31,914 nucleotides of DNA from Thiotrichaceae bacterium (GCA_023144895.1 JAGLEV010000011.1:1-31914), one strand, 5' to 3'; shown: positions 10,059 through 16,284, counted from the stretch's first letter. The notes: a model not told the origin generated them from the sequence alone. Numbers and translations are program-made.

Positions 10059-10283
10059 ATTTAATCACCAGTTTATCAAGACAATACGAGGTGATACTTG
10101 TATCAACCTCAATGTTCCAATATGAATATTGAGTGCTTGTTTTAACATATTGTTCTCACTACCAGAACCCTTAAAATAATTACCGTTTATAAATATTCTC
10201 AGTCTCTTAGTCCTCATGGCGTTACTATGAGCTCATATTATGAACTACAGTCTATGCAAATAGACTATGGGTTGATAATCAAA

Positions 10284-10973
10284 ATGTTAAAAAATATAAA
10301 AAATCCAGTACTGAATATAGTACTCATTAGCATGATAATTATTGTATCTATTGCTAACACAGCAGTAGCACGTGACTTACCTTGGAAGGATAATATTTAT
10401 ACCCACTATTCTAATCAAGAGCCATTACGCTCATTTTTAGAAAGTTTAGCGGCAACAGAAAATACGCCGATCATTGTTAGTGATCAAATTGATACAACAA
10501 TTAGTGGCTATTATCTCAATAAAACATCCAAAGAGATTTTCTTAGATGTTGTTAAAGCTAATAATCTTGCATGGTATTACGATGGTGATCATTTGTATGT
10601 TAGTCGTGAGAGTCAGATGCAAACAGGTACGGTTAAATTAACCCATGCGACAGCAACAGAATTTACCAAGTCATTAAAACGTTTAGGTATTCTTGATCAC
10701 CACTATCACTGGGTTAAATCAGATATTGATAGAATGGTATATTTCAAAGGCCCTGAGCAGTTTGTTAGTGCCGTACTTGAGATGTCGAAAGTATTGGATA
10801 GTAAAGCAGCGAAACCGAGTATTTTTCGTTGGGTTGATAAGCGCGGAGTAACACACTTCAGTTCAGAATTACCCACAGAATATGAAAATAATAATAATGT
10901 AGAAGTGATCAAACGTGACAAGGGATTAATGGTTCTAGGAGAGCGAGATTCTTTAGGTATTAATAAGCAATGA
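10284..10973 (+). CDS. sctC: T3SS secretin SctC N-terminal (N0-N1) domains only, with no secretin pore domain
   Basis: Signal peptide from the third Met (MLKNIKNPVLNIVLISMIIIVSIANTAVA|RD). The mature region matches the YscC N-terminus as I recall it: 'IIVSDQIDTTISGYY' ~ 'VVVSDKINDKVSGQF', 'NLAWYYDGDHLYVS' ~ 'NLVWYYDGNVLYIF', 'RMVYFKGPEQFVSAVLE' ~ 'RLVYVSGPPRYLELVEQ'. The ORF stops after about 229 aa with TGA overlapping the sctD ATG (ATGA at 10970-10973). The longest ORF starts at 10227. Confidence 0.6.
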   Translation: MLKNIKNPVLNIVLISMIIIVSIANTAVARDLPWKDNIYTHYSNQEPLRSFLESLAATENTPIIVSDQIDTTISGYYLNKTSKEIFLDVVKANNLAWYYDGDHLYVSRESQMQTGTVKLTHATATEFTKSLKRLGILDHHYHWVKSDIDRMVYFKGPEQFVSAVLEMSKVLDSKAAKPSIFRWVDKRGVTHFSSELPTEYENNNNVEVIKRDKGLMVLGERDSLGINKQ

Positions 10974-12262
10974 AAAAAAACAATATACAATATGTCGTCA
11001 AAGTTTTGTCTGGCATGAATGCAGGTGCGAGTGCAGCATTGCATAATGCATCAGGTCTTGTTATCGGTGGGACTGATCAATGTGATATTATTTTTAATGG
11101 CGCCAGTGTTGCGGATCGTCATGTTGCTATTGAGCTAGATAATCGTCGTATTCGTTTGACACCACTAGCACAGCCAGTCTATGTCGATGGAAAAGACATA
11201 GGGCTTCATGTGACCAGTATTAAAGCAAATCAGCTATTAAGAATTGGTGATGTTAGCTTTACCGTCACCACAAGAAATAGCTCAATATCTAGTGTACAAG
11301 ATTTATTAGACCGCCATAAACGTCTTAATTCAGGTGCAGGATCTAATACTAAACCTCCTTCAGGATCTCTTCTAACAAGCCCTTGGTTATGGTTAGGTGT
11401 TGCGGTACTCATCCTTGGAAATATCCAATACTTTACCCAAGATACGGGGGGCTTAGCTGCTATGTTTGGTTTTAAGGAAACGGTCAGTTCTAAAGTCAAT
11501 TCATTAATTGCTAGCAATAAATACCCTGATGTTCGTGTTGATAAAAACAAGGATGGGATTATTTGGATTCAAGGCTATGTAAAGAATAACGCTGAGCGGG
11601 AGCTTCTTGATAAAGAACTCTCCTCTTTTGGCAATAACGTTGTTTTACGAGTCTTTGTTGACACTGAACTAGAAGAACAAGCGCAATCGGTAGCAACAAC
11701 ATTGGGTGAAGATGGTATTAAGTTTTCAACCATGGCGCATGGTCGAATTAAAGCAACGGGCATCACTGCTAATCGTAGCAAGTGGCTACATATTAAAGAC
11801 ACTATTCGACAGGATATTGATGGTATTAACGCGATCAGTGATGAAGGTGTTAGAAATCTTTATGAGCAGTTTTTGGTATTAAAAAGAAGTGTAGAGAAAG
11901 AAAAATTTTATCCGCGTATCAGTTTAGAACATAAGAAAGGCGTTATTTTAATCAAAGGACGATTAACAGAGAGCGAAATAAAGCGCTGGGTTCAATTAAA
12001 AGATGAATTTAATGCCGCCAGTTTCTACTCTTTTCGATATAACGAATTACTGATAAGACCTGATATCGGTATTAAGCTTGCCTTACGCAGCGTCAGTGTA
12101 GGAGCCGTGCCGTATGTTATTTCTCAAAAAGGTAATAAGTACTTTAAAGGCTCTGATGTAGGTAAAGGTTACTTTATCGAAGCAATCAAGCAAGACCACA
12201 TCTTGCTGAAAAATAATAATATAATATTCCCCATATATTTTGGACAAAACAAAGGAAAATAA
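10970..12262 (+). CDS. sctD: T3SS inner-membrane ring protein SctD (YscD/EscD family) with N-terminal FHA domain
   Basis: 430 aa (YscD is about 419 aa). Cytoplasmic FHA-like domain (VIGG.DQCDIIFNGASVADRHVAIELDNRRIRL...VYVDGKDI), a single TM (SPWLWLGVAVLILGNIQYF) and a periplasmic C-terminal region of about 270 aa. Position is between sctC and sctE/F. Confidence 0.8.
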   Translation: MKKNNIQYVVKVLSGMNAGASAALHNASGLVIGGTDQCDIIFNGASVADRHVAIELDNRRIRLTPLAQPVYVDGKDIGLHVTSIKANQLLRIGDVSFTVTTRNSSISSVQDLLDRHKRLNSGAGSNTKPPSGSLLTSPWLWLGVAVLILGNIQYFTQDTGGLAAMFGFKETVSSKVNSLIASNKYPDVRVDKNKDGIIWIQGYVKNNAERELLDKELSSFGNNVVLRVFVDTELEEQAQSVATTLGEDGIKFSTMAHGRIKATGITANRSKWLHIKDTIRQDIDGINAISDEGVRNLYEQFLVLKRSVEKEKFYPRISLEHKKGVILIKGRLTESEIKRWVQLKDEFNAASFYSFRYNELLIRPDIGIKLALRSVSVGAVPYVISQKGNKYFKGSDVGKGYFIEAIKQDHILLKNNNIIFPIYFGQNKGK

Positions 12263-12264
12263 TA

Positions 12265-14933: not shown

Positions 14934-14966
14934 ACCTTCGTGAAAATAAGCTGAGAAAGACTAAAA

Positions 14967-15668
14967 GTGACTATTATGACTGACCCATCAGATTCACATC
15001 GTAAGGATAAGATGCCGTATTCTGTTTGGGAGTTTAACTACAAACCAGAAAGTTATGTTCATGAATCATGGGTATCCGATTTACCTAATGCAGAACTGAT
15101 TCAAAAATTAATCCAAGAAGATAATGGCGAACAACGTTCTACACGCCTATCTCATCACCTGATGAGTCAATTAGGATTTAATGGTAAATTCTACTTTGAT
15201 TTTTCAGATTCACTCACTCGTGTTGCTTTGCTAAAAAGTGATGATTTACAAACTTTGGTTATGCACTTAGGTTTGATGTTTCATTTTGATGATATACGCC
15301 ATACCATTACTAAAGACCTTGTGGTCAAATACCGAGAAGAATTAGGTAAAGATCTCTATCAGTTTGCTTTAACGATAGCTCCAAAGTTTAAAAAGAAGCA
15401 ATTGAAAAGTATTCGTTTACCTAAAGATATGCCAATAAAAGAGCAGGTTTTAGTTTCGGGCTTAATTTGTTTATTTACCGCAGTGAAATCAAATCCAGTG
15501 GCATTATTAAAACGCCTGTTGATTAAGCTACCTAGAGAGTGGTTTGATCTTTATGTACATTATTCCTCTAAGTTAAAACGTATTCCTGGTGGTCAAGGTG
15601 GCAATGCAAATATTGTAAAGCTTATTCTGAGTGATTTGAATATTGAGGTGAAGAGTGATGGTAGATAA
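14967..15668 (+). CDS. sctK: Cytoplasmic protein in the SctK (YscK) position; sorting-platform component candidate
   Basis: 233 aa soluble protein between sctJ and sctL, overlapping the sctL start by 14 nt (translational coupling). Assigned by synteny only. Confidence 0.35.
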   Translation: MTIMTDPSDSHRKDKMPYSVWEFNYKPESYVHESWVSDLPNAELIQKLIQEDNGEQRSTRLSHHLMSQLGFNGKFYFDFSDSLTRVALLKSDDLQTLVMHLGLMFHFDDIRHTITKDLVVKYREELGKDLYQFALTIAPKFKKKQLKSIRLPKDMPIKEQVLVSGLICLFTAVKSNPVALLKRLLIKLPREWFDLYVHYSSKLKRIPGGQGGNANIVKLILSDLNIEVKSDGR

Positions 15669-16284
15669 TTTTATTCATAGTCAGAGTGAGACACCAAAGA
15701 TAAAACCAGGTGTAAGGATTATCAAGTCATCGGATTACCAACAGTATCAAACAGCAAAAGAGCTATGGGAAAAAACCCAACTTGATATAGCAGCCCATCA
15801 TGTTGAGGCTGAAAACCTTAAAATGCAATCGATTGAAAAGGGACTGAGTGCAGGTGCTGAAGAGGCAAAGTCTCGTCTGGCTAGCCAAATATTACAATCT
15901 GCGACCTCTTTTGTTAACCAGTTGTCGGCAATAGAAAAAGATCTCTCTCAAGTAGTTAATAATGCAGTACGCAAAATAATTACTGATTTTGATGATAATG
16001 ACTTGGTCTTTGCAGCGGTAAAGAAAGGCTTAAAGCCAGTTTATCAAAGTCAGCGTGTTGCAATACGCGTTCATCCCACGATGGTTGAAAATATTAATGA
16101 GCGACTTCAAGAGATAGGGCACTCGATTGAGTTTTTAGATGTTAGTGCTGATGCACGATTGAATGAAACAGATTGTATTATTGAATCAGATGCTGGCATT
16201 GTTGATGCGAGTATTGAGACTCAATTAGAAGCAATTTCTAAGGCAATTGCTAGTCAGTTTTCTGGGTCAACCGCTTTACCATAA
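15655..16284 (+). CDS. sctL: T3SS stator protein SctL (YscL/FliH-like)
   Basis: 209 aa. N-terminal coiled coil and C-terminal 'TDCIIESDAGIVDASIETQLEAISKAI', the conserved SctL/FliH C-terminal motif (E.D.G..DAS.ETQL.AL). Confidence 0.75.
   Translation: MMVDNFIHSQSETPKIKPGVRIIKSSDYQQYQTAKELWEKTQLDIAAHHVEAENLKMQSIEKGLSAGAEEAKSRLASQILQSATSFVNQLSAIEKDLSQVVNNAVRKIITDFDDNDLVFAAVKKGLKPVYQSQRVAIRVHPTMVENINERLQEIGHSIEFLDVSADARLNETDCIIESDAGIVDASIETQLEAISKAIASQFSGSTALP

Follow-up and report, generated by a model that had tools for sequence, protein, structure and literature searches.

A DUF4124 tail replaces the N3 and secretin domains of SctC in a type III secretion operon of Thiotrichaceae and their relatives

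What can a type III secretion operon do when the export gate is absent from its surroundings and the gene for its outer-membrane ring ends before the pore? This question is raised by a locus in the complete 31,914-bp contig (hereafter the window; G+C content ~37%) of a metagenome-assembled genome (MAG) labelled Thiotrichaceae bacterium (GCA_023144895.1, JAGLEV010000011.1). Between positions 10227 and 16284, nine open reading frames (ORFs) follow one another on the + strand, in one orientation and with short or overlapping junctions, in the order sctC'-D-E-F-G-I-J-K-L, as in Yersinia. An initial annotation, made from the sequence alone, had described them as nine packed, co-oriented genes in the yscC-L order of a system for type III secretion (T3SS), with which our ORF calls and profile searches agree. 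It offered three explanations: a decaying remnant, half of a split T3SS with its export-gate genes at another site, or a repurposed subassembly. To our knowledge, in every case studied structurally an injectisome passes the outer membrane by way of an SctC of its own, and the sole recognised exception, in the Myxococcales, is also needle-less. We find that the splitting of the operon is in itself ordinary; the new point is a clade-wide SctC without a pore, in a stripped-down system derived from the Ysc family.

Pfam and NCBIfam profiles assigned six of the nine genes (sctD, E, J, K, L and, by its N0/N1 part only, sctC'; Table 1), whereas the sctG-like gene gave weak matches and sctF and sctI were not matched directly. 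The SctD with an FHA domain, the SctJ lipoprotein (223 bits) and the SctL (165 bits, above cut-off) named in the initial annotation were all recovered. SctD has a cytoplasmic FHA-like domain, one transmembrane segment, three periplasmic BON-like domains and a conserved C-terminal Y4YQ_C domain; its Pfam domains scored above their cut-offs, and TIGR02500 matched it over its full length (residues 9–417) with 83 bits, just below the cut-off of 86. SctE matched TIGR02501 with 22 bits, under the cut-off, and SctL also matched TIGR02499 (97 bits), PF06635 and PF02108. The protein in the SctG slot matched CdsG weakly (NF052304, 25.5 bits; cut-off 170), as it did SctY and HrpB1, and its gene keeps its position across loci. 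The order from C to L is conserved in all related loci compared. The window arrangement recurs in independent assemblies of at least five other sequencing runs and is thus no assembly artefact. Among the Pfam matches of the window and of L001, L090 and L097, none belonged to a family specific to flagella, such as those of rod, hook or FliE. A promoter and terminator scan of the operon gave no excess over shuffled controls, and an Rfam scan of the window found nothing.

The first gene of the operon, the stop of which overlaps the start of sctD (ATGA), encodes the protein that sets this system apart. The N0 domain of SctC' matched PF21304 (29.4 bits, above the cut-off), the N1 match was weak, and the alignment to TIGR02516 covered positions 2–139 of 463 (89.6 bits; cut-off 238). 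Its tail matched DUF4124 (PF13511, 25.6 bits; cut-off 22), and neither an N3 nor a secretin domain (PF00263) was found by Pfam or NCBIfam. Of the parts that define the secretin superfamily, SctC' therefore has N0 and N1 and lacks N3 and the C-terminal β-barrel. NCBI names the gene 'DUF4124 domain-containing protein'. The start at 10284 agrees with the N-termini of 36 homologues, and the 37 aligned sequences share a signal peptide and 37 invariant columns. The DUF4124 match corresponds to a motif, (I/V)(Y/F)(K/R)W(V/T)DxxG...(F/Y)S(S/N), that is conserved in the clade directly after N1. In an AlphaFold2 (AF2) model (predicted local distance difference test score, pLDDT, 82), N0 and N1 were followed by a tail of ~50 residues made up of short strands. 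The modelled N0N1 superposed on that of MxiD (6rwk) with a target-normalised TM-score of 0.91 and a root-mean-square deviation (rmsd) of 1.7 Å. It also superposed on EscC and InvG (target-normalised TM-scores of 0.79–0.91 over MxiD, EscC and InvG; rmsd ~2 Å for InvG). SctC' cannot form a pore, and can only be a periplasmic N0–N1 module.

This architecture is not peculiar to the window. Short SctC proteins formed 44 clusters in a collection of 5.8 billion proteins, all of 201–258 aa, and a scan of 185,579 GTDB species-representative genomes gave 26 short-SctC loci in 25 genomes. The hosts are Thiothrix, Thiolinea, Cocleimonas, Leucothrix and other Thiotrichaceae, together with Competibacteraceae including Ca. 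Competibacter denitrificans. In the 26 loci the frame closes 1–74 aa past the N0N1-DUF4124 match (1–34 aa except in L034), and against a hidden Markov model (HMM) of full-length SctC, which has 597 positions and was built from 18 Ysc-family proteins, the short proteins match only over positions ~12–180, the window protein over 12–179. In the lower-ranked homologues sampled (at most 32% identity), the frame runs on for more than 320 aa and the proteins, of 573–659 aa, are all full-length; these come from Photorhabdus, Hahella, Pseudomonas, Aeromonas, Yersinia and Endozoicomonadaceae.

The remainder of the secretin was not found close by. No other ORF in the window, or in L001–L034 with their 10-kb flanks, matched the N3/secretin part (HMM positions 180–597); on a repeat search L089, L092 and L097 held only short SctC', and L090 and L091 held no SctC match. 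Following the core-gene logic of Abby & Rocha 2012 / TXSScan, the inner-membrane ring proteins SctJ and SctD are present, and an SctC with a PF00263 pore is absent from the window and from more than 30 related loci. The initial annotation treated sctC' as a truncation local to an island, which it is not, and the comparison with related genomes that it called for showed the module to be conserved in more than 25 of them. The data show that the N3 and secretin domains of SctC have been replaced throughout the clade by a DUF4124 tail. Our literature search found no description of an N0–N1-only or truncated SctC, nor of any T3SS in Thiothrix, Leucothrix, Cocleimonas or Competibacter. One Competibacteraceae MAG, CAZGON01, carries two short sctC' copies on separate contigs (L031 and L032), which points to two T3SS clusters or else to a mixed bin.

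Where, then, is the export apparatus? The absence of sctN, O, Q, R, S, T, U and V from the window, as initially annotated, was borne out by Pfam scans of the flanking ORFs, phmmer and tblastn. A search with the SctV of a related locus identified a Thiotrichaceae SctV (P0054), through which we reached a 20-kb contig, L090. This contains a collagen-like gene, sctQ-R-S-T-U, two unrelated genes, NfeD, STAS, sctV-N-O and groES/groEL. Exact-sequence look-up identified its proteins as MCK5727235-246, including hypothetical protein KAH22_10485, and the window genes as MCK5725541-548, KAH22_01805 to KAH22_01835. The common prefix KAH22 and the adjacent accession ranges place both contigs in one MAG. 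Thus sctR/S/T/U/V/N and sctQ are present in the same genome, on contigs linked by binning, and all ten genes of this other T3SS half are intact. The T3SS genes on L090 stop after sctO, exactly where the window operon begins, and tblastn of the window against L090 revealed no shared T3SS gene, nor did either contig carry traces of the half that lies on the other. A second complete sctC-L set elsewhere, which would have marked the operon as a duplicated fragment, was not found on L090, the contig to which this result applies.

The nearest relative, L089 (SctC' 71% identical), keeps sctV-N-O-C'-D-E-F-G-I in one piece, so the split in the window is recent. The same contiguous order (V-N-O-C'-D...) was found in L001, L006, L007, L009-L011, L013 and L015. 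Other arrangements also occur: the 10 kb upstream of sctC' hold no T3SS gene in L002-4 and L020, the cluster has been split independently in the Cocleimonas/Leucothrix group and in some metagenomic lineages, and Thiothrix and Thiolinea have a divergent arrangement. These observations support the conclusion that the window operon is one half of a recently split T3SS and no orphan, the second of the explanations first offered. A repurposed subassembly is not needed to account for its stand-alone arrangement.

A compact form of the system occurs in a cultured organism. In the complete genome of Thiothrix subterranea (CP053482.1), an 18-gene T3SS cluster with housekeeping genes on its flanks has sctJ-I-G-F-E-D-C' on one strand and sctQ-R-S-T-U, NfeD and sctV-N-O on the other, plus sctL-K. 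Its SctC' is 225 aa long, and the cluster contains no genes for a secretin core, gatekeeper, ruler, tip or translocators. By name, SctW/YopN-TyeA, YscX/Y, SctP, the tip and the translocators were found in neither the window nor the T. subterranea cluster. In Noviherbaspirillum, an outgroup with an SctV of 51% identity, the canonical accessory genes of the Ysc type are all present.

Compared with the Ysc injectisome (Yersinia Ysc, Pseudomonas Psc, Aeromonas Asc and Photorhabdus; virG-yscA-L), the window operon has the same order, C-D-E-F-G-(H)-I-J-K-L. Window proteins are matched by the YscE, YscK, SctL (PRK06937), SctJ and SctD profiles, and the nearest homologues of the SctC' N0N1 region are Ysc-family secretins (Photorhabdus, Hahella, Pseudomonas, Aeromonas and Yersinia; 24–32% identity). 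However, yscH, a pilotin and an AraC-type activator are absent here, and the SctC of the clade has DUF4124 instead of the N3, secretin and S domains. The clade also has NfeD and STAS between sctU and sctV, its clusters, at least that of T. subterranea, lack sctW, sctP, sctX/Y, tip and translocator genes, and its F protein is not recognisable as YscF.

The F and I proteins were the most difficult to place. An sctF candidate sits between sctE and sctG in every locus. The YQSKLS motif, by which the initial annotation recognised a needle subunit, is present in the window protein (as DYQSKLSD), but no Pfam, NCBIfam or PDB profile matched. A profile of five SctF candidates likewise found no match among PDB sequences, and phmmer against 1.84 billion representatives returned only the window SctF itself and a 708-aa repeat protein. 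Jackhmmer searches from Y. pestis YscF and YscI (query sequences confirmed in locus L075) reached Competibacter genes but not those of Thiotrichaceae. With hhalign, the SctF family profile aligned to the C-terminal end of the candidate SctI proteins (91% probability, E = 9e-7), and needle and rod pairs resemble each other in this way. Alignment to YscF was insignificant (hhalign, E = 0.25), and the needle profile PF09392 was unmatched. The single-sequence AF2 model, one long helix (residues 24–87), was uninformative. We regard the 88-aa F candidate as a probable needle subunit. The 193-aa SctI, too, lacked a direct Pfam or NCBIfam match, and the PDB profile search gave chance matches only. Its C-terminal 20 residues aligned to YscI only marginally (hhalign, E = 0.015). 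However, the clade SctI HMM and the Ysc YscI HMM both match one Competibacter ORF, L034:12868-13311 (4.6e-8 and 2.9e-21, respectively), which gives SctI transitive support. The SctI that the initial annotation recognised by a C-terminal helix is linked to YscI only through this intermediate, with no profile match of its own.

Window SctF is also unusually divergent. It was 27% identical to its L089 counterpart (dN/dS, the ratio of non-synonymous to synonymous substitution rates, 0.87), whereas its neighbours were 55–85% identical. It is closer to Cocleimonas-type sequences than to its own subclade and has an N-terminal tandem repeat, GIQAAQTQ/GVQAAQTQ. Its divergence and its repeat point to fast evolution or gene replacement. 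The genes around it behave differently. In comparisons of six genes of the window with L089 (Nei–Gojobori method, with synonymous sites near saturation), dN/dS was 0.07–0.12 for the other five (sctC', D, E, G and I), which rules against decay. For sctE (81% identity) it was 0.07, and for the sctG-like gene (85% identity) 0.10. All nine window ORFs are intact. These data show that the operon is under purifying selection.

What does a conserved, pore-less SctC do? We think it probable that this operon, which supplies basal body, needle and sorting platform, is a functional part of a T3SS that derives from the Ysc family and is specific to Thiotrichaceae and Competibacteraceae, and in which DUF4124 would couple the machine to a partner in the envelope. 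A recent rearrangement would have cut the cluster between sctO and sctC'. SctD and SctJ would form the inner-membrane rings, and exported SctC' would assemble as a periplasmic N0–N1 lower ring templated by the C-terminal tails of SctD, by analogy with InvG on PrgH. In Salmonella, 16 InvG N0–N1 domains are assembled by intercalating PrgH C-terminal tails, which template the ring in place of the pore, and the mature complex contains one cleaved, N0–N1-only InvG as its 16th protomer (bioRxiv 10.1101/714097). The N0N1 of SctC' has the same fold as this lower ring, and the C-terminal domain of SctD is retained and conserved. In contrast to Salmonella, where 15 of the 16 protomers extend into the pore and cleavage yields the fragment, all protomers here are genetically N0–N1-only and carry DUF4124. 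SctE and SctG would chaperone the small F subunit, which would polymerise on the SctI rod.

In the least certain step, the DUF4124 tail would couple the N0–N1 ring to an envelope partner encoded elsewhere, for which the likeliest candidate would be a secretin from another locus: that of a type IV pilus, of type II secretion, or an unlinked core. A protein with DUF4124 as its sole recognised domain, TfpC (NGO0783) of Neisseria, is periplasmic and keeps type IV pili assembled (PMC7593972). Like SctC', TfpC has PF13511 and is exported to the periplasm, and the type IV pilus that it serves is secretin-dependent; unlike SctC', it has neither N0/N1 nor a T3SS context. A more tentative history, possible rather than probable, is that the lineage gave up the pore and fused the SctD-binding N0–N1 ring to a DUF4124 adaptor, the pore then being borrowed (from PilQ or the type II secretin) or the outer membrane not being crossed.

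Several points weigh against a DUF4124-coupled, functional injectisome. A secretin supplied by another locus is conjecture, and the link between DUF4124 and secretins is indirect, through the effect of TfpC on pili. What links the two KAH22 contigs is metagenomic binning and not sequence. With sctW, sctP, sctX/Y, the tip and the translocators missing, at least in T. subterranea, the machine may be no usual injectisome. Lastly, SctF has no similarity to known needles, is very divergent, and has no proline in its aligned region, so that the PxxP turn is absent; a canonical needle is not demonstrated.

The rival that survives best is a T3SS that is truly secretin-less, which we regard as possible, if doubtful. 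The machine would end at or below the outer membrane. Its N0–N1–DUF4124 ring would serve only to fix the basal body to the peptidoglycan or to the outer membrane from within, and substrates would pass to the periplasm, across cell–cell septa of filaments or through another exit; such a system would recall the secretin-less T3SS* of Myxococcus, which acts together with a Tad-like machine. That most hosts (Thiothrix, Leucothrix, Cocleimonas and Thiolinea) are filamentous counts in favour of such a system, whereas the Competibacteraceae, not known to be filamentous, count against it. In its favour too, there is no pore domain within 10 kb of more than 30 loci, including the complete-genome cluster between housekeeping genes, and the T. 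subterranea cluster is also without gatekeeper, ruler, tip and translocon genes. Moreover, there is a precedent for a functional secretin-less T3SS in Myxococcus xanthus, whose T3SS* is likewise non-flagellar, with a locus without a dedicated secretin pore (PMC10849154, PMC3459982). However, the Myxococcus system has no needle or translocon homologues (PMC10849154), while here the SctC N0–N1, sctE and sctG, the F-like subunit and the SctI rod are kept and the sequences are Ysc-like. That chaperones, F-like subunit and rod gene have been retained under purifying selection argues against a machine confined below the outer membrane, as does the fast evolution of the F subunit, which is expected of a surface-exposed part.

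Alternatively, sctC may have been split in two, with the N3, secretin and S domains in an unlinked gene whose product would form a two-piece outer-membrane ring with SctC'. SctC' breaks off exactly where N1 would give way to N3 (HMM position ~179 of 597), T3SS genes are often scattered in this clade, and InvG has an upper and a lower ring that can be told apart structurally and are unequal in stoichiometry. We nevertheless consider such a split unlikely, as no gene of this kind adjoins any locus in three cluster arrangements, where a dedicated partner would be expected to be linked at least sometimes, and the gain of a DUF4124 tail suggests a new interaction and not simple fission. That the operon is a decaying or non-functional remnant, its truncated secretin marking the loss of function, is very improbable: although the pore is missing, the cluster is split, and a toxin–antitoxin pair and a pseudogene flank the operon, the nine window ORFs and the ten L090 genes are intact, the short architecture persists in 25 genomes of two families with its 37 invariant columns, dN/dS is ~0.1, and the DUF4124 tail is a gained, conserved feature.

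In this natural system, two roles of SctC, attachment to the inner-membrane ring and pore formation, come apart, and it can serve to test how machines recruit secretins or exchange them. The data suggest a first molecular context for DUF4124. If the pore is indeed borrowed, a secretin exchange would have been caught in progress, and would show how T3SSs have repeatedly taken over the secretins of others. In practical terms, T3SS detection by profiles with an obligatory secretin will overlook such systems or classify them wrongly. As T. subterranea is cultured and has a complete genome and a compact cluster, the question can be tested experimentally.

Several further genes accompany these clusters. 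An NfeD-like gene, usually followed by STAS, lies between sctU and sctV in every arrangement found in the clade (Table 1); we know of no standard injectisome of which NfeD is a component. A gene directly upstream of sctQ (L009:3-698, L011:2-610, L090:1-399) encodes a collagen-like protein in which Gly-X-Thr triplets are repeated (PF01391) and the C-terminal globular domain is conserved. The MAG of the window has this gene, on L090; the T. subterranea cluster does not. In Ysc operons this slot is occupied by sctP, the needle-length ruler, and the collagen-like protein could be a ruler or a substrate. A conserved neighbour of the T3SS in several loci of the contiguous type, ~750–775 aa long (L001:17375-19699, − strand; L006:8534-10777, −; L007:12423-14753, +; L016:7307-9532, −) has one weak Big_6 match and otherwise no Pfam match, is absent from the window and could be an effector. 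We also considered whether an outer-membrane substitute might be provided by the 774-aa neighbour, by a 619-aa ORF of the window or by NfeD/STAS; Pfam gave no evidence for any of them, and only NfeD is universal.

Table 1. Positions of the operon genes and other features, in window coordinates unless a locus is named
Feature	Position	Strand	Annotation and evidence
YoeB/YefM toxin–antitoxin pair	8106-8625
TPR fragment, 63 aa	8932-9123
KAH22_01805, 256 aa	within 8106-10226	−	hydrophobic, signal-peptide-like N-terminus; no family match
sctC'	10284..10973	+	signal peptide, N0, N1, DUF4124 tail; alternative ATG upstream at 10227
sctD, inner-membrane ring protein	10970..12262	+	PF16697, PF00498, PF16693, PF21937, PF23893
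sctE, YscE-family needle co-chaperone	12268..12462	+	PF08988 25.1 bits (cut-off 22); alternative GTG at 12265
sctE-sctF spacer	12463..12787	+	conserved non-coding block at ~12555-12620
sctF candidate, needle-like, 88 aa	12788..13054	+	position and similarity to SctI only
sctG-like TPR protein, putative needle co-chaperone	13241..13675	+	TPR_16, TPR_19
sctI, inner rod, 193 aa	13709..14290	+	conserved C-terminus SQASQGLKTLFRSAG; linked via intermediate sequence
sctJ, inner-membrane ring lipoprotein	14337..14933	+	lipobox LSAC; TIGR02544 222.9 bits (cut-off 162), PF01514 96.6 bits
sctK, sorting-platform adaptor	14976..15668	+	PF06578 (YscK) 65.9 bits (cut-off 22); alternative GTG at 14967
sctL, stator/ATPase regulator	15658..16284	+	NF005392 164.9 bits (cut-off 159); alternative GTG at 15655
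Type IV pilin (ComP_DUS)	16444-16953		in the slot of the APH/choline-kinase-like gene of some relatives
Histidine kinase and response regulator	16992-19347
RNA-repair locus	22442-29689		RlaP nucleotidyltransferase, SPFH/Band-7 protein, RtcB ligase, sigma-54 activator RtcR
NfeD(-STAS) region	L001:4466-5561; L090:7275-8114; L097:9443-9970		between sctU and sctV

The flanks of the operon were as initially annotated, with a toxin–antitoxin module and a TPR pseudogene on the left and a pilin gene and a two-component system on the right. The content of 8106–10226, the expected place of sctO, is consistent with a scar left by rearrangement at the breakpoint. The pilin gene that follows sctL was considered as a part of the system and rejected as a chance neighbour, being absent from this position in all other loci. 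In L001:16239-17201 and L006:7430-8401, an APH/choline-kinase-like gene overlaps the sctL stop, like a tenth gene of the operon. In the RNA-repair locus, no Y-RNA-like element was found by Rfam in the gaps, and other window genes encode MipA and a cation/proton antiporter.

Within the spacer between sctE and sctF, the conserved block (TACCGATTAACGT...CTGTAAGTTATTAGG) lies upstream of sctF and occurs twice in L089 (4770-4810 and 4955-5000); it was found only in the window and L089 lineages. Its predicted RNA fold was insignificant (z = −1.3), and Rfam gave no match. The block could serve sctF as a promoter or an operator. Finally, on L090, ~5 kb downstream of sctO, positions 16928-20089 encode a large exoprotein (more than 1,054 aa) that carries a two-partner secretion (TPS) domain.

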